Below the pieces are notes generated by a model. That model did not search any database. It was not told where the DNA came from and saw only the letters and a list, made by a program, of their open reading frames with translations. DNA of 64,000 bases from Balanoglossus misakiensis (taxonomy: Eukaryota > Animalia > Hemichordata). The stretch lies in contig CM082596.2 of the NCBI GenBank assembly GCA_040954595.2, forward strand, positions 9,940,461 through 10,004,460. The letters are read 5' to 3'. The position numbers and the translations under genes were made by a program. This document shows positions 12,441 through 36,625 of this stretch, piece after piece; the first letter of the stretch is position 1; the number at the start of each line of letters is the position of its first letter.

Positions 12441-12860
12441 TGAGCTGTACTCCCCAGGGAGTTGAATGGAATGTTTAGGTCCAACGACCTAGGTCAAATG
12501 ACCATGGGACAACTTTAAAGCATGTTGAGATTTAATGTGCTACATAAGTTATAAATATTATATTAATATTATTACATAAACAACACTCTTACCTAGCTAA
12601 GGAAGTGGTCAGGTGAAAAATATTTGCAGAGCTGACCAATTATTTAAGGAATATTAAAGTTGGGTAATTTGGACGTATTCATACGGGTGTTGGTCAATGG
12701 AAAGTCCTTTGTTCATTTTCAAAATGGCAACCAAAAATGCGAACAAAACACACTGAATTATGTACGGGATATTGGTGTTGCCTAATTTGCGTGTTTCCAC
12801 ATTTACTTAAACTCTCACAGGGAGACAAATGTCACAGCAAACGGAAAAATGACTATGCTA
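12340..12860 (+). repeat. ~520-bp block (last satellite part-monomer + SINE 3' half + flank), duplicated at 16437-16965
   Basis: CATGGGGATTAAATGCA...GTCACAGCAAACGGAAAA is colinear in both places with scattered substitutions. Confidence 0.85.
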
Positions 12861-13230
12861 CACACAACACTTTTATTGATCATGGAAAATGTTCATGAGA
12901 ATTGTGTTATGGTACTTTTCGGGGCTCACGACCTGTGTTATAGGAAATCTGACAAGGAATCCAAACTGTACCACATACACAACACTTTAATTAAGCATGG
13001 GAAATGGTCCTGAGAACAATATTCTCAGAGTTGACAAACTGTGTTATCTGCGTTATATTGATGTTGTCTAATTTACACGCCTGTACATTTATTTATACTC
13101 TGACTTTGAGCTTAATAAGGCAGCGCCTGCTAAGGTCAATTTGCCACGTACACTTTTAATTAGCATAGATAATGATCATGATAACTTCATTTTCAGAGCT
13201 GACAAACTGTGTTATGTGAAATTCATGTTG
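12860..13230. repeat. Degenerate short tandem repeat (3 diverged copies)
   Basis: An ACACTTT(T)A(A)TT...CAT...AATG motif recurs near 12865, 12980 and 13150; TGACAAACTGTGTTAT occurs twice. Confidence 0.45.
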
Positions 13231-14379
13231 CCTATTTCATGATAATGGCTTGTGGTACACAATGGTTAACAGCAATCAGCAATTGCTTGTATGATAGGTA
13301 TAATGATCGATTTACAAATTTCAATGGTATAATAATGGGCAACACATGTGGAAGTGTTTAATAAACAGTTAACTGATGTGGTGATGGTTTGTGGTAAAAT
13401 TGAGGGTACACAGATTATAATGGGCAAAACAATGAATATAATAGAGGTTGATGATGGTGAATGGTTTCATATGAATGGTGTAATAAAGGTTAACAAATGT
13501 GGTGATAGCTTTGGTGTACAGGGCTGTTCATATCTTTAGTAATGACAAAGGTATAATAGTGATAAAAGCTTAAATAAGTGTTAGGGTACAATCTTCATGA
13601 TGGTTCATTCATTGGTTAATGTGTATATTTTATTAATATCATGCTATTGTTTATCAGTTAGATCATAATCAGGGTTTTTCCATGCACATAGTCATCATGA
13701 ATCAGCGGAATTCTTCTGAATAGTACCTGTGATCATTTTTGCGCACCGACGCATTGTACGCGACAGACATGCAGAAAATATTAACATGTAACTCACAGGC
13801 ATAGTGTTAAATCTAAACGACTATATGTTAGATAAGCTTTACCTCCCCACCCCATCAAAATTCCAAATTTAGCTTGATGTGACGTTTTCGGGTAGTACCA
13901 ATTCGGAAACTTTCATGGTTCATTCATTGAACCAAATATTGGATTTGACACACTGTGTCTTGGGTGGGTAAAGCATGGTGAAATGTTGGCAGTAAACTTT
14001 AACCAGACAGGTCACATGAAAGGAAGATTTTATCATTTGAGTTCGATGGCATACATGATAAGATATGTCAGTTCTGACACCTTTTTTGCAGACGTAGATG
14101 CTGATGTATTTTTTCCATTGGACACAATACTCAAAGTCCAGTCTGTGTTTAAAATGATACCCTGGTCACACACAGTGAGAAATGTCAGCCTTTGACTTAA
14201 TTATCTAATTTATGCATTGTTAACAATGCACTGTGACATTTACTGCATGTATTTTTCCCCCTGTGGAAACTTACTATGCTTTGAATACATGTTCCCTAAT
14301 GGGGTGTTAAAGGATACAGTAGGATCTGTTTCGGTAGCAAATATGACACTGTTTTCAACATATTTGACTGGTGGCAATA

Positions 14380-16436: not shown

Positions 16437-16965
16437 CATGGGGATTAAATGCACATGCGTGTGTATTTAAAGTTAACTGTAAATCCCCAGGTTAATACGT
16501 GGCCAAAAGCACTGTAATTTGGCATTTCTAATGATGGTGAGATGTTGTTTGCTCCCCAGGGAGTTGAATGGAATATTTAGGTCCAACATCCTAGGTCAAA
16601 TGACCATGGGACAACTTAAAGCACGTTGAGATTTAATGTGCTACATAAGTTATAAATATTATAAAAATATTATTACATAAACAACACTCTTCCTTAGCAA
16701 AGGAAGTGGTCAGGTGAAATATATTCGCAGAGCTGACCAATTCTTTAAGGAAAATTAAAGTTGGGTAATTTGGATGTATTCATACGAGTGTTGGTCAATG
16801 ATAGGAAAGTCCTTTGTTCATTTTCAAAATGAAAACCAAAAATGCGAACAAAACACACTGAATTACGTATGGGATATTGATGTTGCCTAATTTGCGTGAC
16901 TCTACATTTACTTAAACTCTCACAGGGAGACAAATGTCACAGCAAACGGAAAAATGATTATGCTA
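16437..16965 (+). repeat. Duplicate of 12340-12860 (satellite part-monomer + SINE tail + flank)
   Basis: Direct colinear similarity to 12340-12860. Confidence 0.85.
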
Positions 16966-16967
16966 AG

Positions 16968-18935
16968 CAATACGCCAACCTTTAAAATATTACTTTAGAA
17001 AGTTTGTATTCATACTTTCTTCAAGTTGTCATAACGCTACCCCGAAATGTGTTTAAGTATTGCCTTTGTATTAATGGGCTAGATTCATGGCGTTATATGT
17101 CATAAATTAAAAAGCCAACCCTTATTGATTTTGATAATATTTATGTCGGAGAATCCACAATGAAAAATATGTATTTCAATTTCATAACTCAAAATGATTT
17201 TCAAATCCATGACCTTATTTTCAACTCCAGTGATCGTACATCCTGAACCTCGTGCCAGTAAATGATTGGCCATTACAGGGTTAATGGGCACTCTCCCGTT
17301 CTCTTCCTCCGCAGTTTCATTCATGTTCTTGTTTGACGGAAATGGGTGTGACCAGACGCTTGAATGTTTTCATGTGGGTGTCGTTGTTCATCGGGATCGG
17401 TCTCCTGGTGTGTCTGTACAGGTACGCAAGGAGAAACTGCCCACAAGAAGCTGCGAGTGAAACTATTTAAGGTAGTATGTGCCTCGCGGTCCGAGATTCA
17501 GACAAATGATAGTCCTCAAAACTTTTTCAAGTCTTTGATTTACTAAAGTGTATGGTGAGTCTCTTTGAAAACAACAAAAACATTACTCACCATATTGTTA
17601 TTTTTTTGAAAGTTTAAAATGAAGTTGACAATGTACCAAACAGATTCTATTTATTTCTTCATGACCATGTTCACCCCAAGGTCATATGGACCTGCAAGTA
17701 TATGCCAGAGCCAGAGTCGACATTACCGAAGCCAGAGTTCAAAGCTTGCAGGTCACCCCTTGCCAGCTCATGTCTAGCTAAACTGCCATGGATGCCAAGA
17801 GATATAGGACTACAGTAACCTGTAGATGGTTTCAGTATGTTTGAAGAAAGTGGTGGCGCACTTTTGGCTACATTTGAAATGGCTATGGTACCAGTGGTTG
17901 AATTTGCAAAGGTGACCTTTGACCTGGTATCATTAAAGATATTAAAGAACGATTGAACATTCCTTGTTGTCGTAAAATGACATCTGTAATAACTTATATT
18001 TTATCTGTTCATCTTGAAGTACTATATATTTAAACGCCAATTTTCCATTGCCAATCAATTTTTACAAATAAATTGTAATATGCATGTTGATTTTACAAAA
18101 ACTCCTTACTTCAAAGTGAATTCTGTTACACATCACGTAAATATTTTCCCCACGAATTCTTCAGTTGCTGACTCGGAAATTTCATATATTGGGCAGAAAT
18201 TGGATACATTACCGAGCCATTAAAATTACAGTTTTCTATTTTAATTGATCTTCCATAACTTCAAGTACTTTGATTTGACATAAATTAAAAACATCATGGT
18301 GAATAAATAAAAAATCTTTGATTATCTAATTGTGCATGTTTACATGGTTTTATTTTAGTATGCTGGGTACTTAATGTCTAATTGCTCGCTGATTTTATAC
18401 TGTTCAAGATGACAATCTAATTTTAGTTTTCAGCTGATAATGGAAATTACTGATTAAAAAAATTGAATTTTGTCATGAATAAACTTGTTGTTCATGGCAG
18501 TTGCTGTATTTTGTTTCATGTGTATTCAATTTTTGCAAGAATACCATTGAGCACAGTTTGATTTGATTAAACACGTTTATCGGAAAATTTTGTCATTTGA
18601 AATATCTGTTTTTGCGCCCTCTACCATTTGACCAAATGATTCTCTTATTTTGGTGGCCTTTGTCTGTGTATATGAGAATACTATAGTACTCTCGCATCGA
18701 TGATAGTAGAAGTTGAAAACGTCTCTTGCCACGTGGCCTAGAAGAAAGGTGATCTTTAGAGTAAAATAAAACAAACTATCCAGATAGGAAGCTAGAAAAG
18801 AAGTTGAATCGTTGAAATTTTATTTATTTTTATATTGTTAATATCGTTGGTGATGTTGACTGGCCGACAATCTTTGTCACACCAGTATTTGCAGGTAGAT
18901 TAAAACATTGCCTATTCCAGCAATAATCACAACAG
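16968..18935 (+). repeat. ~2-kb dispersed duplication, copy 1
   Basis: CAATACGCCAACCTTTAAAATATTAC...CCAGCAATAATCACAACAG is colinear with 33715-36625. Confidence 0.95.
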
Positions 18936-19149
18936 TCTTACTTTTTCTATCTTTGTAAGCGTTAATCTTTATTGACCTCGCTTGTTGTTTTGTGTTTTTG
19001 TGTTGTTTTTGTTTTTGTTTTGTTTTTTTAGTAGTTTCATAATTTTATTTGTATTTTTAAAATGTTTTCCTGTTTTTTGTTTAATTTTTTATTTTTTTTA
19101 CTATTTGTTGATTGTAATGCTGTATGGGTCTCGACTGTCGGTCCCAACT

Positions 19150-20446
19150 TGTCATATAATTAGGTAGTACTGGAGTCAGTGGAAACCCAGGTGCCCGCAT
19201 AATTTCAGGTGTAGTGACACCGTGTATTGTCATGTTAATGAATAGGGCTTCGTTAGCTAAGTTTCGTGTAGTAAGAGAGCACACTTCAATTTAGGTCTTG
19301 AAGGGAGCAACAAGTCGGGTCTCCCTGCTCAGTGAGTAGAAATACTAGGGGAAATATTGCACCATACCTTGCTGTGTCCATGTAATGCTGTAGCGCGCAT
19401 TAGTGCTCTCAGGACCACTGTTTCTGCAATTCGAGTGGAAGTAAATTCAGTACTTCTAGAAAGCAGAATTGTGCTTATTCAGTGCAAACCGGTGTGGTCG
19501 GGCGATTGGCGTGGCTGGCATGGTCGTATGTGGTGTGGCTGGAAATTGCTCCAAGCAGAGTTCTGTGGAACCATCCTATAGACCCGGTATTGCTGAGCAT
19601 GAAGTGTGGTGAAGAATTCTCGTGTAAGTAATGTATTTGTTTATTTATTTACTATAACTTAAATTTATATTTTATGGATATTTATGTCAAATTCGACAAT
19701 TTGTAAGTAATAGGACGGTCATAGTTAAAGCATAATTTTCCATGATATCACATGTAATCATGACGCTTTAACTAGTCCAAATTTCTGATAATTATTATTG
19801 AGAAACATCAGTATTCATTTGTGAACAGTTGCTAAGGTGGACATTTCAGTCAATGTTTGTTGATTTTTCATTCAGCCATTTAACCCAAGACTTGCATCTA
19901 ACAAGTCAGTCTTCAGTGTGTTTACTTGACTACTGGAGGACTACAAGTGGTAGAAAACATGGTGTATCACAGATTGTATGTGTAATGTGGATCGTCGCTA
20001 CATCGTTCATCTATACAGGACTCCATCCCATATTGTGGTTGAATCATGATTGTTTACTATGAATGTTATATACAGCTAAGTGACACTTACCATTGTTTAG
20101 ACAATATGCAATAGACAATAAACTATAGTGATATTGTGAATATATTCATTTATGTAATATATTAAGTAACCCATTGTATTGTATGACCAATTGTATCAGC
20201 ATACCTGTACCTGCTAAATTGGTTAGGACAGAGACATTTGATATTGTGCATATTGTGCACAAAAATTATATTCCTAGTATTATCTTTATATTATTTAATT
20301 GATTTAAATTAAATCAACTGTATTATTGTATCCGCACTGGTTTGTGTAGTTTCTCCCCATACCTTATCCACGGATGTTTACTCCTTGGCACTGAGAGCTG
20401 CTCAATATTTATCCTGGAATCAGAGGGGTGCCCTCCACCTCTGACA
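19150..20446 (+). repeat. 5' LTR (1297 bp) of a Gypsy retrotransposon
   Basis: TGTCA...TGACA inverted termini. The start is fixed by the paralogous uninterrupted site at 36935-36959 and the end by the PBS 2 nt downstream. Confidence 0.8.
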
Positions 20447-20448
20447 TT

Positions 20449-20465
20449 TGGGGGCTCGTCCGGGA
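20449..20465 (+). promoter_or_regulatory. Primer binding site, tRNA-Pro
   Basis: TGGGGGCTCGTCCGGGA matches the canonical tRNA-Pro PBS and sits directly after the LTR-terminal CA. Confidence 0.9.
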
Positions 20466-20784
20466 GTTTTATCGTTTTGTTGTGCATTTGTTTGTATACT
20501 ATCATAAATTGTTGCCATATAGTGGAGACCATGGTTTTGATAGGTAGAGATTCTGCAAATTGTGAAGACGGTGCTGGGTCTGTAGGCTGGTACTGTTACT
20601 GTATGTGCGCTTGTGGTTTCCTGCTATATAATATGGGCCGTGTTGGTTTGCGTCGTGCGTTTGGCTGTGTTGACTTGTGCTGAATGCCCTGTACTGCTAG
20701 GGGTTGTCAAACTGGGGGTTGTAAATCGCGATACAGCAAAGCATATATGCAGAAAGAATATCTAAGATAGGGAGAAAATTTGGG

Positions 20785-22557
20785 TTGGAAGGGACTGCTT
20801 TAAAAGATTATGTTAGAGAGGAACAAATTAGACAGAGGGATCTTAGGGCTACTGAGAGAGAGGAGCAGAGAGAAGATAATAGGCGGCGCGAGGAACATGA
20901 GAGAGAGATACTGAAAATGCAAATTCACTTACAAGAATTAAAATTGAAAGGGGAAAATACAGAACAGCAGGTTACTGAAAATAATTTGGCCAAAGCGCGT
21001 GCTCCGAGACTACAGGGTTTACGTGAGGATGTTGATGATATGGATGCGTACCTTCAACGTTTTCAGCGCTACGCCACTGCTCAGAAGTGGGAAAAAGATG
21101 ACTGGGGGTGAATCTCAGTGCATATTGTTACAAGGTAAGGATGTATCCACATACAACCAAATGCCTGCAGCGTCTGCAAATAATTATGATGAATTGAAAC
21201 CAGAGTTATTGAGGGCTTACCAGTTAAGTGAGGAGAGTTTTCATGACAAGTTCCGTTCGTGTATGCCACATTATGATGAAAGTGCTCAAAAGTTTATGGA
21301 CCGTATTGGTGACTATTTGGGCAGATGGGTAGAACTGGCTGGTACTCCAAAGACGTACAATGGGCTTACAGATCTGTTACTTCGAGAGCAGTTTATTGGA
21401 GTATGTTCCAGAGACATGGCAATGTTCATTAGAGAGCGACGGCCAGAGAATGTCCAAGAGATGGTATCTACTGCCTCAAAATACTTAGATGCCCGAGGGT
21501 GGTGGAAACTGCCAAGTAATGCCAAGAATAATCCAAGGAGCCAGCCGACAGCAAATACCAAGCCTGCTGTATATCCAAATCAAGTAAATAAGTTTAATAA
21601 CAAAACCAATGGTTCCCATGTTTTTAAAGGTACGTGCTTCGTATGTGGTAAAGGTGGTCATATGGCCAAAGATTGTAGAAGTAAGCCAAAGATGCATAAG
21701 ACGGCGGTATTGTTAACTGAAGAAGATAGAAACTATCCACCTAAACAAGAATGTACACATTGGGGCAACCGTCAACAGCCCAGGGGACTAGACACTGGTT
21801 ATGCATGTATGGTGGTAGCAATGGAAATAGATAAAACAGATGCAACACTGAATAAGGAGTTCGTGTTACCATGTGGTCATAAGCTCCCAGTGATGAGTGC
21901 TGCTTGTAGTGCCCATGGAGTGAAGAAGATGCCGGTAATGAAGGGATTGGTCGATGGTAAGCTGGTTAGCGTTTTGCGTGATAGTGGGTGTAGTAGCGTG
22001 GTAGTTCGAAGAAGTCTGGTGTCAAGTAATCAGCTGACTGGTGAGTACAGGACGTGTGTTCTGATAGATGGGACTATTAGAAGAGTACCTGTAGCCTCTA
22101 TAAAAGTTGATACCCCTTACTTTGTTGGTGATGTTACTGCACTGTGCATGATGAACCCTGTGTATGATTTAATACTGGGCAACATTGATGGTGTATCTGA
22201 CCCTTCGAATCCTGATACTACATGGCAGGAACCATTGCCGACATGTAGACTGTGTACAACTGTTGGACAGGTACCAGGTTTAGCAAATGCTGTGGAGACC
22301 AGAGCCCAGAAGATAGCCAACCAAAAACCAATCAGAGAGCTTAAAGTACCTAAAGCTGTTGGTGAAGTGGTGATGCCAGGGAAGCTTCAACAAGCTCAAG
22401 AAGAAGACTCCACTCTTGACAAACTACGTGAGAAGGCAATTTTGGGTGACGAGAAAGTGACTAGGAATGGAGGTAGGTTGAAGTTCATCATGAAAGATGG
22501 GATCCTGTACAGAGAGTTCAATTCGCCAATGGTCCAATTTGGTGAAAAGCTGTTACA
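20785..22557 (+). pseudogene. gag: gag-protease part of the Gypsy polyprotein (frameshift near 21110)
   Basis: Coiled-coil N-terminus and DMDAYLQRFQRYA in ORF 20785; LLLREQF, CFVCGKGGHMAKDC knuckle and LRDSGCS protease in ORF 20999. Confidence 0.9.
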
Positions 22558-22600
22558 CACTGCGGGAAATACTAGAGCTATGTTGGGCAGTATTCCGCGA
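22558..22600 (+). repeat. Left bipartite terminal inverted repeat
   Basis: CACTGC-N20-TGGGCAGTATTCCG. Confidence 0.8.
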
Positions 22601-22641
22601 AGCGCGAGCTCCCATGTTCACCATAGCAACGCATTGCCAAG

Positions 22642-23292
22642 ATGGCGGCGCCCGTGTTGATCGATGCCGAGAAAGTTATAAAACGCAAATTGCGAGAGGC
22701 AAAATCTGTGCTTAAACGTAAAAAATGCGTGTCGGACAATCTGTATATACACCCACTCTTTGATGAACTTGAGGATGTGACAACAAGGGCCATATTTCGA
22801 AACGACAAGCTGTCAAAGGACAAGATTCGTTGGCGTGACGTCGCCGTATTTCCCATGTTTCAGCGTGATATGACCTACTGGCAGAAGACCTTCTACGCTC
22901 GGCTGTCAACATCCCCGTCGTTAAGGTCACCATGGCAAAGCAGCTTTACACAACAAATGCCGAGGGAAGTATTTGATGTTTTTCATCAGTTTGCTACTCG
23001 GACCGGTTTTGGTATCGACGAGAAGACCTCCAGGGCTATCATAACCTTGACCTTCACAAGTTCCTCGAAGCTATTGTATGTGATACGGAAAGGTTATTGC
23101 TACGAGGGCGCTATCGGTCAGCATACAGAGAATATCCTAGAGAAGAAAGTCCGTGGAAAGAGGGTAGCTGTTATATGCACACCTGAGAAGCCCTGTGTTG
23201 TGAAATATTTTATCAACAGGGAGACTGTTGCTGTTAGATTCAGCTTTGGTGCCTGGAACAAACATGGAATTCCATTACATCCAGAGAACTGA
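22642..23292 (+). CDS. 216-aa basic protein of unknown function, transposon accessory gene
   Basis: Uninterrupted ORF with ATG in CAAGATGGCGGCG 84 bp inside the left end, AATAAA at ~23421 and a globular-looking composition. No domain recognised. Confidence 0.7.
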   Translation: MAAPVLIDAEKVIKRKLREAKSVLKRKKCVSDNLYIHPLFDELEDVTTRAIFRNDKLSKDKIRWRDVAVFPMFQRDMTYWQKTFYARLSTSPSLRSPWQSSFTQQMPREVFDVFHQFATRTGFGIDEKTSRAIITLTFTSSSKLLYVIRKGYCYEGAIGQHTENILEKKVRGKRVAVICTPEKPCVVKYFINRETVAVRFSFGAWNKHGIPLHPEN

Positions 23293-24144
23293 ACCCTATT
23301 GATTTTTCACACTGATTCAACCCATCTGACGAACATTTTTTTCCTGATCTGTGGCACATGTTGTTCAGTGTAGATGTATCAGTCTGTCAAGACAGTCCTC
23401 TCACAATTGACATATATTCAAATAAAAAAAGGAAAATTAGAAGACTCAAAAATTCATCACTTGTCTTTATTTATCTACATTCAATACAAATGAACAGATA
23501 ACGTTTACAAAATTTCCTAAACTGTAAAATTCTTTTTTTCCATCATTATTGTAACATAGATTTTTCATTAGTTTCAGAAAAAAATGTATGTTACCTACAA
23601 TCAACATTGATAAGTCAATCAAAACTGCTCATCTAACAGTTAACCAGGATTTCTGGTCTAAATTTAATTAATATTTACAATTAATTCCATGACAAAATTT
23701 ATAAATATCAAGAATTTGATGAGACTTAATTCTTTATTTTTTCACAAATTCATTAAAATTTCGTGCAGGTGCAGAATAAACAACTCCTCAAGAAAAATGT
23801 AAAACTTTTCTATCAAGCTTATGTATGTCATACATTTTAATTTTGCAAAGCACTGCAATCACTATACGATTAAGGGTTTATTCACAATACTTAATAGTGG
23901 TAAGATAAGTTTCAATTTCCCTGTCCCCATACATGCACACATATACAAAATCCCATAAGAAACATATCATCTCCAGTTCAAAAAGTGTGAATTCATGTGA
24001 TTTGTGATCTCCATTTTTATTAAATGCAGCTCTCAACTACAGATGAGTCTTTATAATTCTGTAATGTAATTAATACCATAGTTATCCTTTAATTCTAAAG
24101 TAGCACACAGTGACACAATCCACTGTTTCAAATTCAATCATTGT

Positions 24145-26385
24145 TCACAGCATAAGTTTCTTGAGTTTATTTGATATTTTACCAGTGACAGCTGCTTTTT
24201 TTATGTCATCCATAATTGGGTCAACACATATTTCACAGGCAGTCATTGTTTCATTTTTCAAATTGCCACACATACAGTAGCCTGCATTCTCATAATATCG
24301 ACTGGGAATGTATTTTTCTTTTTCTTTAAGCTCAAATTGACCTACATTTGCCCTTCTATAGTTGTCAGCTTTTGGACTTTTGTTCCTCAGCCAAAAAAGC
24401 ATCACATATTCGTGTCGAAATATGAGGGCCCACCTATTTTGAGGTGTAGAATTTTCACTGAATTCTAGCAGGCGTAGATGCTTTGCCTCTCTGCCTTCCA
24501 TTGTGTTTAGGCCTAATCCCAGACTGAATTGCTTATAGATACTAGTGGTGTGTTTTGGGACTACATAACCAATGTGCCACACAGTATTATTGACATTCAG
24601 AAACAGGGAATGTAGATTAAAGTACCACCGACACTTATGCCTAAGTACAAGCAAATCTCCCTCATTTATGTTGAATCGTGAGAATAACAAAGTGATATCT
24701 CTAAGCAAGATACCAGTATATGTGTAGAGAGCTAATTGAGCCCGACGCTTTGGACTGTCTGTATCGCTTCTCAATGCTAATACCAATCCCATGAAATGCC
24801 AAGCAAGTTTGCGAGACTCCTCACCAGTGAAGCGATAAACCACATTAATGTTGGCATTTGACTTGACACTATTTTCATTGAAGTATTTTACAATCTTATT
24901 ATACAACTTTCCAGCTTTTACTTGATATTTTAGGGCAGACAGGAATTTGTACAGATATGACTCGTTAGGTAGATTCTCAATTTTAACTCCATTTTCACGA
25001 CCCTTTTCCGAAGTGTGGGCAACTGCGTCAATCAGTAATCGTTGGAAGTAGTATTGCCATGCATTGTTCTTTAAATGCAATGGCTCAGCCTTGGCACAAT
25101 CAATAAATCTACCCAACGGTGGTACAAATTCCTGTCTTGACCTCAGACTGGCTATAAATTGTGTGATTTTGGGTCGCACTGTTTTGGGCTTTCCAGTTTT
25201 AATTTTCTTAGTTGACTTCAACTTTTCAACAGCTTCTGCATCTTTAATTCTTTTCTGATATTTCCATTCATCCCACTTCTGACCTGGGCCAATTTCTGCT
25301 CCAATACAATCAATATCATTTTTGGAAACGTTAGCAAATGAGCTGAAATACTTTGCTGCATTGCTTAGTTCTCCAGACACACTGGCCAATCCCTTCTGAT
25401 CAAAGGGTAAAAGTGACACCTGAAAAGTTACATCAAGACTGCCAACTTTATATTTACGTTTCTCAATACACTCAAGGTCTTTTGACAATGCAATTGCAAA
25501 TTCAATCATTATGGGGTCATCCTCTTTTATGTTTGCCCCTAATAGGAGAATATTGTGGTCTGGGCTAGCAACACGGTGGGTCACATTCAAGAAACTAACT
25601 AGCCATGCAGTGGCCTGTCCATGTTTGCCAAACGGAGCCCCGTCAGCACCTATACTGATTTGAAATGAGCCCTCCTGTTTACCGAACCAGTTAAGAATAT
25701 CAGGCTGTGTTTCCCCCATATTTAAATATAAACTGGCAATCTTAATAAGCAACTCCTCAGGGTTTCTTTTTAAGCCGACTTGTTTGCCTTCAGATGATAT
25801 AATTGGCTCAAGATTTCCAATGTCAAGGTTACTTACATACTGTACAACTTTTGTGTATGGGAGCAGTCTTGGTATTCTACAGCCAGAATGAATTTCTAAT
25901 GCTTTCCTAGGATGTTTCAAGTTGGAGAACATCTGAAGTTCACTCTGCCTCAGACAGTTATATTTTCGTTTGGATAGTACTCCGCCCTCATACATAGTTC
26001 TGACACTCCTCACCAAATTGTTCTCACTTTTCTCAAATTTACTGATGTATTTATCAAATACTGATGGCATTACTTTTTTACTGATTTGGGGAGAGGTTCT
26101 GAAGTATGTTTTCATTTGGTCAGGAGTGGCAGAATTAACAAGAGTATACCACAAACCATCAAGTGCTGCTTTTGGTGGATGTAGTACATTCGGTTTATTT
26201 ATACCTTTGGCTGGGCTTACATCTGTAGTTGCTACATGAATATTTATGGCTGCTGATAAGGTTTCACACCTACGTTCATACTGTTGACGTCGCGACAGCT
26301 TCAAAGATTCACTATTATCTGCACATACTTCAGTGTTCTTGTGGACCCATTTAGAGCGTTTCACATTAACATCATCAACAGGAAT
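24145..26385 (-). CDS. DDE transposase, RAG1-core/Transib/Chapaev-like; main (last) exon
   Basis: Motifs in RAG1 order: ISIGADGAPF (D), LLPFDQKGL (D), EPLHLKNN, RFTGEESRKL, GLGLNTMEGREAKH (E), then a C-terminal CMC-x9-CEIC. Splice acceptor TCTTTCAG at 26386, phase 0. Confidence 0.85.
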   Translation of the reverse strand: MPVDDVNVKRSKWVHKNTEVCADNSESLKLSRRQQYERRCETLSAAINIHVATTDVSPAKGINKPNVLHPPKAALDGLWYTLVNSATPDQMKTYFRTSPQISKKVMPSVFDKYISKFEKSENNLVRSVRTMYEGGVLSKRKYNCLRQSELQMFSNLKHPRKALEIHSGCRIPRLLPYTKVVQYVSNLDIGNLEPIISSEGKQVGLKRNPEELLIKIASLYLNMGETQPDILNWFGKQEGSFQISIGADGAPFGKHGQATAWLVSFLNVTHRVASPDHNILLLGANIKEDDPIMIEFAIALSKDLECIEKRKYKVGSLDVTFQVSLLPFDQKGLASVSGELSNAAKYFSSFANVSKNDIDCIGAEIGPGQKWDEWKYQKRIKDAEAVEKLKSTKKIKTGKPKTVRPKITQFIASLRSRQEFVPPLGRFIDCAKAEPLHLKNNAWQYYFQRLLIDAVAHTSEKGRENGVKIENLPNESYLYKFLSALKYQVKAGKLYNKIVKYFNENSVKSNANINVVYRFTGEESRKLAWHFMGLVLALRSDTDSPKRRAQLALYTYTGILLRDITLLFSRFNINEGDLLVLRHKCRWYFNLHSLFLNVNNTVWHIGYVVPKHTTSIYKQFSLGLGLNTMEGREAKHLRLLEFSENSTPQNRWALIFRHEYVMLFWLRNKSPKADNYRRANVGQFELKEKEKYIPSRYYENAGYCMCGNLKNETMTACEICVDPIMDDIKKAAVTGKISNKLKKLML

Positions 26386-26738
26386 CTGAAAGATTAAGTG
26401 TGTGATAAATATATACTAATTAGAATATAATCATTATATATAAAATAAAATCTTCTTACAAGTTAATCATTAATTTAAATGTCCTTGATAAGAAATACAC
26501 ACGTGTAGCCTGTATTTTTCTGACAACTTCTGCAATAAAAATCCTAAAAAATATATATAGTTTGTTGGAAAACCTAGATGTTTTGCATCAAAGCTGAACC
26601 CATTTTGTTATCATTGTTTACACAGGATCATGTGACATGAAGTTCAAAAAGCGAATTTGGGCTAAAATTTGAAGAGGATTTATACAAATCTGAGATTTTT
26701 AAAATTATGACTAAGTCTATTTATCTGATCTAGCTTAC

Positions 26739-27182
26739 CTTTCTCTTATTATTCTTTGTAGCTAAGATCTCACAAATCTTACTGTTCTTCTTCTCTAGTC
26801 TAGCTAGCTGGGTTGAGGATCTTTTTACTAGTCTCCTAGCTGCACTCAACTTATTCAACTTATCCTGAATTATGCTTTCTTCCTCATCTCTCTTTCTCTT
26901 TCTCTGTCTACACCACTCTCCTAAGTTAAACCTGTGTTTAGTCTGTCCTCTCTTTGTTCTAACTACCAATAGGTTGTTGGCCACGCTCCCAGACAAAGAT
27001 CTAGTCTTCAATTTCTCCTGATATAGTTGTTGCAAACACTTCTCTTCAGCTACCTGTCTCGCTATCTTTTGGTCCTTTGTCCACTGGCCTATGTTGAAGT
27101 AACTTTTCCCTTTTCTATTCGGCATAACAATAGACAAACTTTTAAGAAGTGCGCTACTCCTGTTGAATAGTTTGCCCCACAT
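26739..27182 (-). CDS. Upstream coding exon of the transposase (148 aa, K/R-rich, helical)
   Basis: ATG at 27182 in GCCATG; donor AAG|GTAAGC at 26738 joins in phase 0 to IPVDDVNVKR, giving ~894 aa in total. A further acceptor (CCCTTTTCAG, 27199) and donor (ATG|GTAAGG, 27334) suggest a 5'UTR intron. Confidence 0.7.
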
Positions 27183-27987
27183 GGCTCTAAATCTATACCT
27201 GAAAAGGGTGAACAAGAGAAATATCTTTACAATAATTATCTATCCGAGGGAAGCAAAAACAAAACACCTGCTCATTATACTTCCTCCAGAAATTGAGGTC
27301 AAAGGTGACATAGAAAGAATGTGGGTAACCTTACCATAACAATCTCGCCCGTTCATTTTTTTCTTATTTCGTTTTCACCCTCGAATTTCCAGCGAATTAT
27401 ATCAAGAATATATTTTAGCACAAACTATTGGTTTCTGATTTTTCAGTTACGGTCTTATTTTCTGTCAATTCTATGAACAATATCACCATGTCGCTGAAAA
27501 TTCGAAGCGCCGCCATTACAATCAATGTAACCCGTGCTGCTGCCAAGGAACACACAGGGTCGTATATTTTCGCTTGGTATGATTTCGTCATATTGCTTGT
27601 AGCAGCATTTTAAACATGGAATCCTATGTTTACGTATAAAAGACTAAATTCGTATGGTTTTCAAATTGAAAAAAACAATTCTGTGAAGCTGAATCGTTGT
27701 AATTTTTAGTGTTTGTTTATGGTTGCTTAGGACGGCTTCTGCTATAGCAACGGCCAGGGACTGTCAGCGGGTGATCAAAATGTTCAAGTTATTTGGCTGA
27801 TACACATAAATAACACAGCAGAATCGCAACTTTATTTCATATTGTCTCTGACATCTTGCTAATTTTACTAAACAAAACTTGGAATAAAGCAATATTACTC
27901 ACCGAATTATGCTGTGCATCGACAGCTGTGTTCGATCGCGAACGCCATTACTGTGTCTAATTAAATATTCATGAGCTTCATAGGCTG

Positions 27988-28031
27988 CCACGGAAATACT
28001 GCCCATAGGTGGCGTCGTTCAAGCTGTAGTG
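27988..28031 (-). repeat. Right bipartite terminal inverted repeat
   Basis: The reverse complement reads CACTAC-N20-TGGGCAGTATTTCCG. Confidence 0.8.
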
Positions 28032-28034
28032 ACA

Positions 28035-29995
28035 GGTGGTGGTTCCCAGAGTGTATCGTAACCAGGTGATGAGACTAGCCCATGAATCAGTGCTGGGTGG
28101 TCACCACGGAACTCACAAGACCACAGACAAGATCCTCAGCAACTTCGTTTGGCCTGGGCTAACATCAGATGTTTCCCGTTACTGTCAGTCCTGTGATTCA
28201 TGTCAACGGACACAACCAAAGGGACGGGTGACCAAGGTACCACTTGGAAGTATGCCACTAATAGATATCCCTTTCCTACGTATTGCAGTAGACCTGGTTG
28301 GCCCTATTCATCCATGCACTGAACGCAAGAATAGGTACATACTTACTGTTGTTGATTATGCAACACGCTATCCGGAGGCTGTTGCATTGACTAACATTGA
28401 TACCAAGACTGTTGCAGAGGCGCTCCTGGACATCTACTCAAGAGTGGGGTGTCCACGTGAAATTCTGACAGATCAAGGAACTCAATTTACATCAGATGTG
28501 ATGCGTGAGGTCAGCCGGCTTTTGTCTATAAAGCAGAAGACTACCACCCCATACCACCCAGCATTCAATGGTCTAGTGGAACGGTTCAATGGTACATTGA
28601 AACTCATGCTCAGGAAGATGTGTGAGGAACGTCCAACATATTGCGATCGTTATCTGAATGCTTTACTATTTGCCTACAGAGAAACGCCTCAATCGAGCAC
28701 AGGATTCTCTCCGTTTGAGTTACTTTATGGGAGGAGTGTGCGTGGTCCAATGGCTATCTTGAAAGAACTATGGACTGGAGAGATCAGTGAACCAGAAACC
28801 AAAACGACTTATCAATACATCCTTGATCTTCAAAAGAAATTAAAGAAGGCATGCGATTTAGCAAGACAAGAACTGAAGATATCACAAGGCAAATACAAGT
28901 CCTACTACAATAGAAAGGCCAAATGGAGGAAGTTCAACAAAGGTGACGAGGTGTTATTGCTACTACCTACTGACCATAATAAACTACTTATGCACTGGAA
29001 GGGTCCTTTTCCAGTGGTGGAGAAAGCGAGCAATATGGATTACAAGATTGACTTTGGTCATAGGGTGAAAACATTCCATGCCAACCTGTTGAAGAGGTAC
29101 TATCGAAGAACTGATCAGCTAGATGAAGTATCAGCTGGACTTCTTGAGATTGTGTGTGTATCTGTGATAGATGAGCAGAGTTATGAATCTTCAGAAGTAC
29201 AAGAGAACACAGGGGTTAAAGTAAACGATGACTTACTGCGGGTTCCTGCATTCAAGCAGAAAGAATTTGCTGCAGATGTGAATGTATGTGACAACTTGTC
29301 AGACATACAGGAGCAAGTGGTGAGGAGGTTGCTGATCAATTACAAAGATATGTTAACTGATATTCGTGGTAACACCAACCTGGGTTTCCATGACATCAAG
29401 TTGATGGATCCAACACCAGTATGCAGTAGGCCATACCCCATCCCTCATGCACTCCGTGAAGCAGTGAAAGATGAAGTCAAAACGATGATTAAGATGGGAG
29501 TAGCTGAACCTTCAGAGAGTCCATATGCTGTTCCACTGGTAATGGTGAAGAAATCTGATGGGTCCAATCGTTGTTGTGTTGACATGAGAAAGCTCAATCG
29601 CATAACAGTGTTTGATGCAGAGCCTACACCAGACCTGAGTGATCTCAGCAAAGAATATTGGCAAGTCCCGTTGACTGATAATTCTAAACAATTGACGGCA
29701 TTTATCACGCATGATGGGCTATACCAATTTATCAAAATGCCTTTCGGACTTGTAAATAGTGCTGCGACTTTTAGCAGAATTATGAGAAGATTGTTAAGAG
29801 ATATGAAGAACGTAGACAACTATATCGATCACATACTGATCCACACTGCATCATGGGAAGAACATATCAAGACAATTACAGATTTGATGAGCAGACTACG
29901 AAAGGCAAAGTTAACAGCGAGACCAACTAAGTGTTATGTGGGTTATGAGCAGATCGATTTCCTGGGTCATGTGGTTGGTCATGGTGAACTATTCC
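28035..29995 (+). pseudogene. pol: Integrase + defective, truncated reverse transcriptase of the Gypsy element
   Basis: AHES..GHHG..CDSC zinc finger, AVDLVGP, ILTDQGTQF, GLVERFNGTLK and WKGPF, then RT motifs PYAVPLVMVKK, MPFGL, YIDH (for YIDD) and FLGHVVG. There is an internal deletion before DLSKEYWQ. The ORF tail to 30201 is unrelated sequence. Confidence 0.92.
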
Positions 29996-30094
29996 TGTTT
30001 CAAAATGACCTACATTACAGGTCCTATGCACACGTATTACATGTTCTGATTGGTTTATCCACTTCTCTAAGGTCCACTTGCGGCTCGCTGATTG

Positions 30095-30355
30095 GAGGGA
30101 CCTTATGTGTTAGGTCTTATTACTATGTATTATTCACCAGACCTTGTAGGTTAGGTCTTATTACAATGCATTATTCACTTTACAGCTCCCTGATTGGTTA
30201 ATGTGTAGGTCTGGTCCTCCAGTGTTCACTGCCTCATTATGCAGGACCTTGTAGGTTAGGTCTTATTAATATGTATTTATTCACCATACAGCTCCCTGAA
30301 TGGTTAACGTGTCAGTCTGGTCCCCCCCCCCCAGTGTTCACTGCCTCATTGTGAA
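30095..30355. repeat. Short local tandem duplication (~106-bp unit)
   Basis: ACCTTGTAGGTTAGGTCTTATTA at ~30141 and ~30247; CCAGTGTTCACTGCCTCATT occurs twice. Confidence 0.6.
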
Positions 30356-31887
30356 ATGTCCCATGTGCTTCCTGGCTAGCGTTGTGGTAACATATTATTC
30401 GGGGTGTCCGCAGATCGTTCATTGATTTTCTGAGAAATAGCCTAACTGATACTATCTCCAACATAAACCGCACCCTGGAAAGATTAAATGATCTTTTAGG
30501 TGGACTTTGAAAATCTGATTAACTCATCTAAGCATTTTAGCTAAGTTGTATATTTTTTAATTATAATCATACAAAATACTTAAAAAATAAAAACAATGTT
30601 CAGTTTTAATACCCACTGATGAGGGGAAACATCAGTTTCAAATTCTTTTCATGGGAGCGCTTGAGCAGAGTTATGAGTTTTGCTCTGTGAAAGAAAATGG
30701 GGGGATTTCAAAATTTTGGCAGTTCGGAAGGGGGATTTCAAAATATTTCGGGTTGTGAAAGGGGGGGGGGGCATGTGAAAATTAGCGGTAAAAGATGAAT
30801 CCCCCCCCCTCCAGAGGTGTTTGTGAATGCAGCCTAAGAAAGAAAAAATGTGAAATGGGTCAAATATGGGCCGGACGTGCCCATTCAACTCAATTTACTT
30901 TTGTTTGCTTTAAGTAGGAATTGATCACAGCTATATTTATTTTGGACACCTGAGCGACAAGAAAACAATCTGATTCTACATTTTAAAAAGCGTCATTGGA
31001 AAAGCACTGCAATTTTGTTTCTTGCTTTAAAAAAGTTTGGGGTGGCATGTAATAATTAAGGTGTGTCTAAATTACTAATTTGGTGCACCTCAAAGCCCTT
31101 AGCCAATGTAAATTATATCCTGCATTGTATTCATGAAGGATATCCTCCCGCGAGGTCAATGCCATTCAATGTCAAACAGTCTCAACAAAGACCATTGGAC
31201 ACTCATAGCCGTTTTGTATGAAAGTGACTGGAGTACGAGATGAGTTTCATGACAACAACAAATCATGCTCAGTCTCGCTTCAGGGTCTATAATTTCAATA
31301 ACGGCTAGACGCTGGACACTATCTTAGGTAACACTTTAGGGTCATAGTGCTGGAACGACATGTTTAAACAGGTCGTTCCGGCACTCTGACCCTTTCGGCC
31401 CCAGTCGTTTCAGCCCCCATTTTCCACGACCCAAGTCGTTACAGCCCGGACAGTAACACCCCAAACATTTCAACACTTATCAGGGAAGACCTTAGCCCAA
31501 CTATTAAAACTTGGCTTGAACCTACTTAAGTTCTCCGCATGAAATATGAGCGAGCGTTGTCAGAGGACGACAGCTACGCACACTTTGGGCGTGACCGAAT
31601 CAAACAGAATTGAATATTCTATATTCGGAAAAAACACCTTATCTCCGTTTTGCCGTTGACAAACCGATTTCTGTCATGACAGTTACTCCCGGGGACTGTG
31701 ACAGACCATATACAGACAGTAGAGGCCGCGCGCTGGGGGTCTACACAAGTCACTACAGCTGATGTAAGCAAGTACAACATGCTTTGCTTGCAGGAATGTT
31801 CCATTTTCAATAGAGGGGTGTGTATATTCAGAGGGAATGTCAGTCGGGGCCCTGGCTGGCAACATGCGGCGTATATATTGACAATCT

Positions 31888-32815
31888 TAGCCGGGAGACC
31901 AGGGCGTCGATCTAAAATACAACGCTCGGGGACAGTCGAGCAAGTCCTGCTGAGCTGAAAGATAGTAGTCTTGGCAACGATCGAGGTCGCTTAGTAACAA
32001 ATGGATAACGAGTGATCTATCAAATGTTGACGGGCGCCAGTGGTTGGATGATATAATTAAAGGCACGTAAGCTGTAACTGGATAAAAAATTAAAGTTTTA
32101 AATAATCTCATATATGCTTTTAATTATGTCTATTAAATGCTATTTCATGATAATATATCAAGCTCAACACTTATTTATGACAAAATGGCCAAAAATTAAA
32201 GAAAAACGAAAATTCCTGCAATTTAAAAAAAAGCGCAATATTGCAATGAAAAATGAAAATCTGATGTCTCAGTGGTGTACATTTACTTCCATGAGCTCAA
32301 GTGGATGAGATCATGTTTTGTTTATGAAGTTTCACAACCGGAAATGCAACATTTTCATTGTTTCTTGCATTTTCCCACGGTGGCGGCCATAATCGCTTGC
32401 GGCAAAGCTTTATTATTTATCTGGTTAAAACTTGCATATGCACTCATACTTAGGGTTTATAATGCTTGTGTATTGTTCACTACCTTCATCTGTATGGACT
32501 AATGGTAGTGCAGTTTGAAACAAAAATTATGAAAATTATCCCAAAAGTTACACCTTACGTGCCTTTAACAAAGCTTGGTTATGAATATTCATACACCTTC
32601 AAAACCACTCCCACATCCCATCGCGGGAATTTCACACATGACTCCACCTCTATTTCCTTATTTAGAAGGCGACGATGTCATGTGGTTAACATTGAGTGAC
32701 CAATTAGCTTACACGCAAGATTTACCACACGTGTCGTTCTACGAACAGAATTCTGTTCGTAAATAGAGACTGTCCCCGGGCGTTTCTTTTCCCCGACGCC
32801 CTGGTCTCCAGGCTA
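31888..32815. mobile_element. Non-autonomous Academ (AcademH-type) element with 9-bp TSD
   Basis: TGACAATCT|TAGCCGGGAGACCAGGGCGTCG...CGACGCCCTGGTCTCCAGGCTA|TGACAATCT. TAG..CTA ends with a 9-10-bp TSD are described for AcademH. Confidence 0.8.
32061..32564. mobile_element. Non-autonomous Kolobok-type element nested in the Academ element
   Basis: TTAA|AGGCACGTAAG...CTTACGTGCCT|TTAA. Confidence 0.8.
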
Positions 32816-33128
32816 TGACAATCTCGCTGATAGGCGCAGCTGGAATTTATGTTTCTGTGGTATGATTATTGTATTTTATCAATGCACAATCACGATGGGC
32901 GAGTTTCAAGCAAGCAATTGGATTCGCTTCAATCCCTCACTAAAATCTAGACTGCACCACTGTATAATAACACAATACAGTCTTCTAGCCTCATGGTATA
33001 AACAGGAACTCTTGTCTGCTGGACATCCGGGTACTTTGGTCTACTGAGTGAACGCGTTACGTATAGAGGTAGCGCAAAGTGAAAACCTATTTAAGGCAGC
33101 CACAACAATCAGTGTTGACGTACATACA

Positions 33129-33230
33129 ATCTGACTAAAATCGCAGTTGGTATGACGACAGCATACTAATAATACTGTACCACATAAGTAAAAGACGTCG
33201 TCGTACCATACATCTGATTTTATTCAGATT
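33129..33230. mobile_element. ~100-bp palindromic mini-MITE (same family as 33493-33600)
   Basis: AATCTGACTAAAATC...GATTTTATTCAGATT. Confidence 0.55.
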
Positions 33231-33248
33231 ACTGCATATTTGCATATA

Positions 33249-33455
33249 CTGTGAAACAAGTTATTTTCGCGAGCAATACATTTTCGCGAGATACGTGAGA
33301 GCCAAAATGGTATGAAAATAAGAGGTCGCATAATTATTTTTGAAGATAACGATGCAGTGAATGAAATAAGAGAACGCGAAAATTAATACTCGCGAAACAG
33401 TAGCCTCTCTCGATATCGTGAAAATTTCAACTCGCTAAAATAAAGTGTTTTACAG
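33249..33455. mobile_element. Tc1/mariner-type MITE with TA TSD
   Basis: TA|CTGTGAAACAAGTTATTTTCGCGAG...CTCGCTAAAATAAAGTGTTTTACAG|TA, with internal TTCGCG repeats. Confidence 0.7.
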
Positions 33456-33492
33456 TAGTTTATGTATGTAAAGTGTTCCTGATGTTAACACA

Positions 33493-33600
33493 ATCTGATT
33501 AAAATCAGATGTAGGCCTAGGGAATGGCGACGTAGTTTTTTGATGCTGCGACAGCATAAAAAACACGTCGCCGTTCCCTACATCTGATTTTAATCAGATT
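33493..33600. mobile_element. ~108-bp palindromic mini-MITE
   Basis: AATCTGATTAAAATCAGATGTAGG...CCTACATCTGATTTTAATCAGATT, with GTTAACA on both flanks. Confidence 0.6.
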
Positions 33601-33714
33601 AGCGTTAACATAACTTTATCAGAATAAGTTAACGCCATAACTTTGACAGAATAAGAGTTGCCTCAAACGGCTCTAACCGAATTTCCATTAATAGCAGAAC
33701 AAACAAGCTGTAAT

Positions 33715-36625
33715 CAATACGCCAACCTTTAAAATATTACTTTAGAAAGTTTGTATTCATACTTTCTTCAAGTTGTCATAACGCTAACCCGAAATGTGTT
33801 TTAGTATTGCCTTTGTATTAATGGGCTAGATTCATGGCGTTATATGTCATAAATTAAAAAGACAACCCTTATTGTTTTTGATAATATTTATGTCGGAGAA
33901 TCCACAATGAAAAATATGTATTTTCAATTTCATAACTCAAAATAATTTCCAAATCCATGACCTTATTTTCAACTCCAGTGATCGTACATCCTGAACCTTG
34001 TTCCAGTAAATGATTGGTCATTACAGGGTTAATGGGCACTCTCCCGTTCTCTTCCTCCGCAGTTTCATTCATGTTCTTGTTTGACGGAAATGGGTGTGAC
34101 CAGACGCTTGAATGTTTTCATGTGGGTTGAGTTGTTCATCGGGAACGGCCTCCTGGTGTGTCTGTACAGGTACGCAAGGAGAAACTGCCCACAAGAAGCT
34201 GCGAGTGAAACTATTTAAGGTAGTATGTGCCTCGCGGTCCGAGATTCAGACAAATGATAGTCCTCAAAACTTTTTCAAGTAATTGATTTACTAAAGTGTG
34301 TGGTGAGTCTCTTTGAAAACAACAACAATATTACTCATCATATTGTAATTTTTTGAAACTATAAAATGAAGTTGACAATGCACCAAACAGATTCTATTTA
34401 TTTCTTCATGACCATGTTCACCCCAAGGTCATATGGACCTGCAAGTATATGCCAGAGCCAGAGACGACATTACCGAAGCCAGAGTTTAAAGCTTACAGGT
34501 CACCCCTTGCCAGCTCATGACTAGCTAAACTGCCATGGATGCCAAGAGATATATGACTACGGTAACCTGTAGATGGTTTCAGTATGTTTGAAGAAAGTGG
34601 TGGCGCACTTTTGGCTACATTTGAAATGGCTATGGTACCAGTGGTTGAATTTGCAAAGGTGACCTTTGACCTGGCATCTTTAAAGATATTAAAGAACGAT
34701 TTACCATTCCTTGTTGTCGTAAAATGACATCTGTAATAACTTATATTTTATCTGTTCATCTTGAAGTACTATATATTTAAACGCCAATTTTCCATTGCCA
34801 ATCAAGTTTTTACAAATAAATTGTAATATGCATGTTGATTTTACAAAAACTCCTTACTTCCAAGTGAATTCTGTTACACATCACGTAACTATTTTCCCCA
34901 CGAATTCTTCAGTTGCTAACTCGGAAATTTCATATATTGGGCAGAAATTGGATACCGTATATTCTCACAAATAAGCGCCACCCATGATTAGGCGCCAGTG
35001 ATACCTGACTTTGCTACTTTTTACTTAAAATTAAGCGCCAGGAATTTTTTTTGAGGTGTGTGGACGTACGTGAATCATGACAAGTGCTACCGAGGTAACA
35101 CCTGTTTAGGGGTCTCGTCAAAAACAACGGGGGGCTTGCTGTGTGAATAATAATTGACCTGAGCAGACAATGCATGCTTTGGGCTGATGTGCTATTTATT
35201 TACAAGATGAAATCGGGCACGTGTCAACCTCCTAATTTATGTAAATTATCACACTGCAAAAGACACAGGTGCCGGGCGTCTAGACACTCGTCTTTTTCCT
35301 GTCGATCGATCGGCAGCCGCTTACGTTACCGGCACTACCACCCAAGTTTGACCATATGGCCAGGGCTTTGAAATAATAGGACTAGTTTCAAGTTGTGAAT
35401 ATGTTTGCGGTATTAATTTTCTCGTGAATATTCACGCAACGTGAGTACATGTATTCACGCAACCTTGCCTGACCTTACATGTATGAGAGCATGATGACAA
35501 AGACGCACTTGGACTAAACCACTATACGTCAGTAGATTTTGTTGATGGTTCAGCCAGCATACTGTAATGCTGCTCGTAGTATTCACTTCGTTGACAACTT
35601 TTTATTTCTGGAATATTTATTAGATAATACATTGAACTGACTGTATTTGAATAGAAAATGTTAAAACTTTACATATGAATTTGAAACAGCCATTCATTCA
35701 CTACGGACACTCCCTTATGAGAACACTGATTGGAACGTCCCAAATCATTTGCATATGAATCAACAGGGTACAGTATACCGGGCTATCCATGAATAAGCGC
35801 CACCGGTTCTTGAAAAGACTCATTTCTGCCTTTGTTTAGGCGCCACCAAAATTTGAAATGGTTAAAAAGTGGCGCTTATTTGTGAGAATATACGGTACAT
35901 TACCCAGCCATTAAAATTACAGTTTTCTATTTTAATTGATCGTCCATAACTTCAAGTACTTTGACTTGACATACATTAAAAACATCATGGTGAATAAATA
36001 AAAATTATTTGATTATCTAATTGTGCATGTTTACATGGTTTTATTTTAGTATGCTGGGTACTTAATGTCTAATGGCTCGCTGATTTTATACTGTTCAAGA
36101 TGACAATCTAATTTTAGTTTTCAGCTGATAATTGAAATCAATGATTCAAAAAAATTGAATTTTGACATGAATAAACTTCTTGTTCATGGCAGTTGCTGTG
36201 TTTTGTTTCATTTGTATTCAATTTTTGCAAGCATACCATTGAGCACAGTTTGATTTGATTAAACACGTTTATCGGAAAATTTTGTCATTTGAAATATCTG
36301 TTTTTGCGCCCTCTACCATTTGACCAAATGATTCTCTTATTTTGGTGGCCTTTGTCTGTGTATATGAGAATACTATAGTACTCTCGCATCGATCATAGTA
36401 GAAGTTGAAAACGTCTCTTGCCACGTGGCCTGGAAGAAAGGCGATCTTTAGAGTAAAAAAAACAAACTATCCAGATAGGAAGCTAGAAAAGAAGTTGAAT
36501 CGTTGAAATTTTATTTATTTTATATTGTTAATATCGTTCGTGATGTTGACTGGCCGACAATCTTTGTCACACGAGTCTTTTCAGGCAGATTAAAACATTG
36601 CCTATTCCAGCAATAATCACAACAG
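33715..36625 (+). repeat. ~2-kb dispersed duplication, copy 2 (with a 941-bp MITE insertion)
   Basis: Colinear with 16968-18935 apart from the insertion. Confidence 0.95.
34955..35895. mobile_element. Non-autonomous Tc1/mariner-pogo element, perfect 27-bp TIRs, TA TSD
   Basis: TA|CCGTATATTCTCACAAATAAGCGCCAC...GTGGCGCTTATTTGTGAGAATATACGG|TA. The empty site GGATACATT is present in the paralog at ~18202. Confidence 0.92.

Follow-up and report, generated by a model that had tools for sequence, protein, structure and literature searches.

The window analysed here, a stretch of 64,000 nucleotides from Balanoglossus misakiensis (contig CM082596.2), harbours a transposon of 5474 bases (positions 22558-28031) with two genes: a transposase gene on the minus strand and, on the plus strand, a gene for a protein of 216 amino acids, referred to below as the partner. 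The element is confirmed as a DNA transposon of the cut-and-paste type. Its ends are CAC..GTG, its target-site duplication (TSD), ACA, is 3 bp long, and it is nested in a Gypsy-type long terminal repeat (LTR) element. ACA is followed by CACTGC on the left, and GTAGTG is followed by ACA on the right. The two ends share 6 of their first 8 bases and are identical, in register, over the 11 bases of positions 27-37 (TGGGCAGTATT). The stop-free open reading frame of the partner and a stop-free frame of 756 codons on the minus strand (24145-26415) are arranged tail to tail. Predicted splicing, with removal of a single intron, yields a transposase of 894 (ATG at 27182) or 875 amino acids (ATG at 27125) with no internal stop; the start of the shorter version resembles the N-termini of the Nematostella and Porites homologues. 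The insertion point coincides with the break between the gag/protease piece of the Gypsy element and its integrase/reverse transcriptase piece, so the transposon is presumably younger than the Gypsy insertion. No second copy of the transposon was found within the 64-kb window. An earlier note on this DNA had proposed these boundaries, the split ends, both stop-free frames (with a transposase of about 894 amino acids) and the insertion inside Gypsy, and all of them were reproduced. The coordinates are listed in Table 1.

Table 1. Features of the transposon, its flanks and its host element (window positions, unless stated otherwise).
Feature	Position	Strand	Remarks
Left TSD copy, ACA	22555-22557	+	sequence
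Partner-gene-side end	22558-22594	+	CACTGC terminus, spacer, second block TGGGCAGTATT at 22584-22594
Additional GGAAATACT copy in partner-gene-side end	within 22558-22594		end positions 8-16
Partner gene	22642-23292	+	216 amino acids, single exon; ATG 84 bases inside end
Intergenic region	23293-24144		each strand has poly(A) signals, among them AATAAA at 23421 (+) and 24021 (-)
Transposase, main exon	24145-26385	-	746 codons; D258, D339, E643, H447, C-terminal CxCG..CxxC tail, no CxxC
Transposase, predicted intron	26386-26738	-	phase 0, GT..AG
Transposase, predicted first coding exon	26739-27182	-	basic; ATG 27125 preferred, or 27182
Transposase-side end	27995-28031	-	CACTAC terminus, spacer, second block TGGGCAGTATT at 27995-28005
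Right TSD copy, ACA	28032-28034	+	
Host Gypsy-type LTR element holding the transposon	16964-36625	+	
Mirrored end copies in relatives (element coordinates)	L009:734-893; L018:581-678; L019:536-713; L020:474-707; L081:537-932		

A search with transposase residues 150-756 revealed 275 relatives among 7992 scored candidates. The closest relative came from Ptychodera flava (74% identity), while the other named ones belonged to anemones and corals (35-47%). Well-studied cnidarian genomes are rich in this family; a Nematostella cluster of at least 90% identity comprised six gene loci on six contigs. Viral contigs contained no relatives. Prokaryote genomes yielded one, L081, which is surrounded by satellite DNA: positions 1-14043 of this locus, taken from a bacterial genome bin, consist of an element inside a 294-bp satellite, and the locus is likely animal DNA in a bacterial bin. 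Neither the window's transposase nor 27 homologues nor their profile matched any transposase family by sequence in Pfam or the PDB. This includes DUF1280 and RAG1 (0/27 homologues in Pfam at E<0.05) and Transposase_21 or other CACTA families of Pfam. A feature search of the ESM Atlas ranked unnamed cnidarian clusters first (0.98), followed by clusters bearing DUF1280 and RAG1 (0.92-0.96); the nearest clusters with a name carry DUF1280 (in 16% of members) and the RNase H domain of RAG1. As side observations, the predicted first exon (26739-27125) carries the motif F-x-(I/L)-G-x-W twice, as opposed to once in long homologues, and gave a weak match to a helicase-associated (HA) domain that was below threshold (E 4e-4).

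The ends and the partner gene were surveyed in the best 80 of 272 metagenome loci and one further locus (L081), a set that is partly redundant. The relatives begin with CACG and finish with CGTG (12/12 loci with both ends), whereas the window's element has CACTG/CACTA. In near-identical copies, homology ends exactly at CACG/CGTG. The two ends of 10 elements match almost fully at positions 1-11 and, to a lesser extent, at positions 29-36, which makes the bipartite end design a family trait. A 3-bp TSD, as claimed earlier for the window, recurs in 5 of 12 loci with both ends on one contig (TAG, ATT, GAT, AGC, and ATA; p 8e-4 against cross-pairing); L011, L012, and L021 were excluded from this count due to a missing or damaged outer end. 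None of these 12 loci displayed a duplication of 4-6 bp, and none of the six observed TSDs (the above five and ACA) corresponds to TWA. L081 is decisive for the 3-bp duplication: each of the 19 empty units of its satellite contains a single ATA (13 units) or CTA (6 units), whereas ATA flanks the element on either side in the filled unit. Readings of the data as a chance TSD, an artefact or a domesticated gene were rejected on the basis of the empty units of L081, the Nematostella loci, and the TSD statistics.

Two further features of the ends were recorded. Half of the 10 elements examined contain a mirrored, partial repeat of the partner-gene end (85-96% identical), placed a few hundred bases inward of the opposite end; the window's element has no such copy. 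Aberrant transposition and antisense control are candidate sources of this copy. A YY1-like motif, GCCATNTT, is present in the first 120 bases of the transposase-side end of six elements out of 10, against 0.4 expected, and in five of them at positions 51-61; the same end in the window lacks it. The motif also overlies the partner start codon in 8 of 10 elements (22639-22646 in the window), a count confounded by the start-codon context. Binding of YY1 to ProtoRAG ends is described in PMC7481187.

The structural model of the transposase was built from 112 sequences, that is the window's protein and 111 of 120 listed matches, and reached a pLDDT (predicted local distance difference test) of 88.9 and a pTM (predicted template modelling score) of 0.86. 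Foldseek matched this model to RAG1 (E 8e-13), HzTransib (2e-7), BbRAG1L (1.5e-6), and the P element (6e-3). VIA-align produced the same picture: Z 23.1 with a root-mean-square deviation (rmsd) of 3.6 over 462 residues for RAG1; Z 20.2, rmsd 4.0, 423 residues for HzTransib in complex; Z 20.1, rmsd 3.9, 459 residues for BbRAG1L; and Z 12.4, rmsd 5.4, 364 residues for the P element, with Hermes at Z 6.2. A structure search covering 48,161 chains gave an identical ranking, with apo HzTransib at Z 14.6; a viral structure library contained no match under E 0.2. The transposase is thus predicted to have the RAG1/Transib fold, and the affinity to RAG1 and Transib that the earlier note had suggested is borne out by the model. 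Structures of Chapaev or EnSpm transposases were absent among the matches, so a closer relative may exist whose structure is unsolved.

Three acidic residues, D258, D339, and E643 (numbered on the 756-residue frame; codons near 25644, 25401, and 24489), are invariant in 112 of 112 aligned sequences, and H447 is present in 111. By motif and spacing, this triad putatively corresponds to the catalytic residues of RAG1. The family also possesses the LH motif. The CxxC zinc motif after the second aspartate, described for every CMC/Transib/RAG1 lineage, is missing in all 112 sequences, which have Ser/Ala instead; H(4)H was identified in 61 of 112. A C-terminal CxCG..CxxC tail occurs in 95 of 112 transposases, and the RAGL tail Cx2Cx3GHx4C in none of them. 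No conserved Cys/His column was detected in the 112 sequences before frame position 296, and the predicted first exon contains only three cysteines. Thus, of the RAG1-core motifs announced for this element, D, D, E and LH stood, while the CxxC of RAG1 and Transib did not.

The 216-residue protein alone retrieved a homologue (E<0.01) in 33 of 80 loci, in all cases on the opposite strand and downstream of the transposase. A profile search identified the partner in 32 of the 36 loci with at least 1.5 kb of downstream DNA (37/47 at 1 kb; 21/24 at 2 kb), although this profile was built partly from the same, redundant loci on which it was scored, which counts against the pairing. The distances of partner and transposase are correlated over 19 non-redundant elements (Spearman 0.58, permutation p 2e-4), with mean identities of 24% and 42%, respectively, and the two trees have their main clades in common. 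Since kin share ancestry, these correlated distances indicate co-inheritance, not interaction. The ratio of non-synonymous to synonymous substitution rates (dN/dS) for the partner was 0.26-0.35 in all five unsaturated pairs out of nine tried; the gene is under purifying selection. In families that have diverged deeply, the partner still sits some 75-105 bases in from one end. We conclude that the 216-residue protein is encoded by a fixed part of this transposon family, and the convergent gene pairing described for the window extends to its relatives.

The partner has an isoelectric point (pI) of 9.9, and full-length copies comprise 200-254 amino acids. The protein is basic in 30 of 32 sequences, with a pI of at least 8.8 in all except P0126, P0130, and L036. 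The partner alignment displays no kelch repeats and no PHD or Cys/His pattern, and 22 members of the partner family yielded no match to RAG2 or kelch proteins among Pfam and PDB sequences. Judged by its sequence and size, the partner is not RAG2, as had been maintained for the window. A word search with the partner alone gave no match, and NCBIfam returned nothing but weak single-member matches. The partner profile retrieved 23 database proteins, 22 of which contain Pfam PF26709. The possibility that the partner is a fragment of the transposase was rejected (hhalign probability 0.1).

The element shares many features with RAGL/ProtoRAG transposons: the RAG1-type fold (Z 20-23), the D/D/E and LH motifs, two convergent genes between terminal inverted repeats, CAC termini, bipartite ends, a Cys-rich C-terminal tail, and a YY1-like motif close to the ends. 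It differs from them in the partner, which is a six-bladed kelch/PHD protein in RAGL elements and a predicted basic protein of 200-254 amino acids here; in the 3-bp TSD, as compared to 5 bp for RAGL (PMC7204232); in the absence of CxxC, of the full set of four ZnC2/ZnH2 ligands, of the Cx2Cx3GHx4C tail, and of N-terminal zinc fingers or RING; and in an identity of about 10% in the structural alignment. Transib, which includes subgroups I and II (PMC9435367), has a similar fold (Z 20.2, HzTransib in complex), CAC termini, and bipartite asymmetric ends. Canonical Transibs encode one protein (PMC4411706), show a 5-bp TSD and the heptamer CACAATG (PMC1131882), and retain C(2)C. The family studied here has two genes, a 3-bp TSD, CACGC/CACT starts, and no C(2)C. 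Exceptions to the 5-bp TSD and to CACAATG within Transib, including 3-bp TSDs in some members, are reported in a preprint (bioRxiv 10.64898/2026.08.26.747230). A 3-bp TSD alone is therefore not new, and the departure from Transib in TSD and heptamer is not decisive.

Chapaev hallmarks, as given in PMC4079192, are CAC..GTG ends and a 3-4-bp TSD, with TWA as the TSD of Chapaev3; the transposase of Chapaev is equated with DUF1280 in PMC3985635. The family agrees with Chapaev/Chapaev3 in its CAC..GTG termini, TSD within the 3-4-bp range, LH motif, transposase introns, occurrence in cnidarians, and the proximity of a DUF1280-bearing cluster in the Atlas feature search. It departs from them in the absence of the Chapa zinc finger, of C(2)C, and of a DUF1280 match, in TSDs other than TWA, and in the conserved second gene. 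EnSpm/CACTA elements have CACTA/G termini and a 3-bp TSD; the ends of the window's element start with CACTG/CACTA, those of all 12 relatives with both ends with CACG. CACTA elements also use a second protein, TnpA. Here, no match to Transposase_21 was obtained, C(2)C is absent, and the partner is encoded by a separate convergent gene. CA..TG termini and TSDs within 2-5 bp are shared with EnSpm/CACTA and with the CMCT clade at large, to which Mirage, Plavaka, ESTA, and Lanisha belong; ESTA makes TA duplications. All CMCT lineages share C(2)C according to a 2025 Repbase-based survey (PMC12730594), as opposed to 0/112 sequences here, which have Ser/Ala instead and H(4)H in 61/112. By these features, the family falls outside RAGL, canonical Transib, and Chapaev3. 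Of the refutations that the earlier note had named, those concerning the predicted fold and the ends of other copies did not come true. The earlier statement that the element fits no family that can be named holds for these three; as a novelty, the 3-bp TSD does not stand, being already known in some Transibs. The evidence supports a real variant within the RAG/Transib/CMC kind, and the suggested two-component lineage of this radiation finds support in the fold, the pairing, the TSD, and a partner other than RAG2.

In RAG and Transib recombination, a nick beside CAC is followed by hairpin formation on the flanks and by joining of the 3'-OH ends to the target. By analogy with this fold, a transposase dimer would bind both ends, recognizing them via the CAC block plus the inner block, would nick beside CAC and leave hairpins on the flanking DNA; the 3'-OH ends would then be joined to the target strands at a 3-base stagger. 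Absence of the canonical C2H2 zinc probably leaves the shape of the catalytic insertion domain intact, and the end-binding tail of RAGL likely has its substitute here in the C-terminal CxCG..CxxC tail. The basic 216-residue protein would be a non-catalytic subunit of the transposition complex, and its gene may be a second, independent acquisition in the position that RAG2 holds in RAGL elements. Since the frames are intact, the TSD is perfect, and six near-identical gene loci exist in Nematostella, present activity of the window's element is plausible on sequence grounds.

Several observations weigh against this interpretation. Four of the 36 loci with long downstream DNA have no partner; they also have no recognizable end. 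At L024:3164 and L067:1498, which represent one locus in two assemblies, an end-like sequence follows the transposase after about 120 bases with no partner in between; this locus, a candidate deletion derivative or one-gene variant, counts against a strict pairing rule. Co-divergence is expected for any gene carried in an element, and the argument for a helper role of the partner comes from co-inheritance. The partner alignment (22 sequences) contains just two invariant residues, the libraries searched gave no Pfam or PDB match for the window's partner, and its single-sequence fold (pLDDT 33) is no reliable model. In the window's transposase, Tyr replaces the first His of H(4)H. The outer repeats are 8-16 bp in relatives, and the shorter outer match in the window is peculiar to this copy. 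Seven of the 12 loci with both ends lack a 3-bp TSD (one 2-bp match, six none); several of these failures are evident chimeric assemblies, in which copies share one flank and not the other, while those of L008 and L019 are not accounted for in this way.

On balance, the second gene probably encodes a non-catalytic helper for transposition. It could instead encode a regulator or anti-silencing factor that shields or adjusts the element through chromatin, small RNA or the element's own promoters and stays outside the cutting complex, which we regard as unlikely. The basic character of the partner in nearly all sequences would agree with such a role, as would the mirrored end copies in half of the 10 elements examined, which could yield antisense RNA, and the anti-silencing cargo (TET/JBP) of other CMCT transposons mentioned in PMC12730594. 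The ESM Atlas feature search with the partner also ranked Argonaute N/L1/PAZ clusters first (score 0.93), but this result involved 151 of 256 features with low recognition, and none of 22 members had an Argonaute match in Pfam or the PDB; an Argonaute-N-like partner is unsupported and is a lead only. Moreover, the partner keeps its fixed position near one end and shows none of the exchange among lineages that is reported for TET cargo. Capture of the gene as a functionless passenger is highly improbable: the lack of a known domain and the single locus (L024/L067) in which an end-like sequence occurs but no partner does speak for it, but the gene stays open and in place at about 24% mean identity, and the dN/dS values, which indicate purifying selection, largely refute it.

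Another explanation concerns the novelty of the family, which could be an existing but unpublished entry of Repbase or Dfam, filed for instance as Chapaev, EnSpm or Transib or as an unclassified group with a 3-bp TSD. We consider this rather doubtful. The abundance of the family in well-studied cnidarian genomes and the coverage of partner homologues by the recent Pfam PF26709 are in line with it, and so are the Chapaev hallmarks of the ends and TSD and the Atlas neighbours bearing DUF1280 and RAG1 RNase H (PMC4079192 and PMC3985635). However, the literature searched, which left out most subscription journals as well as Repbase and Repbase Reports, contained no description of such a family; public records label the transposase homologues as uncharacterized; DUF1280 and RAG1 are not matched in Pfam; and C(2)C, common to CMCT lineages in PMC12730594, is absent. 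The supplements of PMC9435367 and PMC12730594 showed none of the motifs of this family, a weak negative given that the sequences there are wrapped, partial, and representative only. The most far-reaching reading, which we hold to be less likely than not, is that of an undescribed, superfamily-level RAG1-fold lineage, common in corals and anemones and also found in a hemichordate, in which the canonical zinc site was lost and a small partner was independently recruited as a required subunit; the underlying comparison was made without Lanisha sequences.

The host Gypsy element encodes a gag with SCAN, a zinc knuckle, and a protease, followed by an integrase that precedes the reverse transcriptase; the match of the latter is partial. 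An element with this integrase-before-reverse-transcriptase order is presumably Gmr1-like. Its LTR-like repeats (16964-18935 and 33711-36625) are 96.4-96.7% identical, about 2 kb long, and differ by an indel of about 940 bases. The surroundings are rich in satellites: a 196-bp array of about 64 copies occupies positions 1-12246 of the window, and positions 37600-64000 are filled by an AT-rich satellite based on a 78-bp unit in both orientations. A block of about 6.4 kb recurs within the latter region in direct as well as inverted orientation, and a 239-bp array occupies 39977-41365.

V(D)J recombination is commonly traced to a single event, the capture of RAG2 by a Transib-like element (PMC9435367). 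If the most far-reaching reading is true, a separate lineage with the same fold and tail-to-tail layout but an unrelated partner would mean that such a partner was gained more than once. A two-component recombinase of the RAG type would then have arisen a second time, in parallel, and intact copies exist on which this could be examined. The family offers a natural comparison for the contribution of RAG2, and the family-wide loss of CxxC would make the role of the zinc site and of 3- versus 5-bp target spacing directly testable. Given that it has no sequence match in Pfam or the PDB, the transposase family is likely under-annotated in coral genomes. Its intact copies could become new transposon tools.

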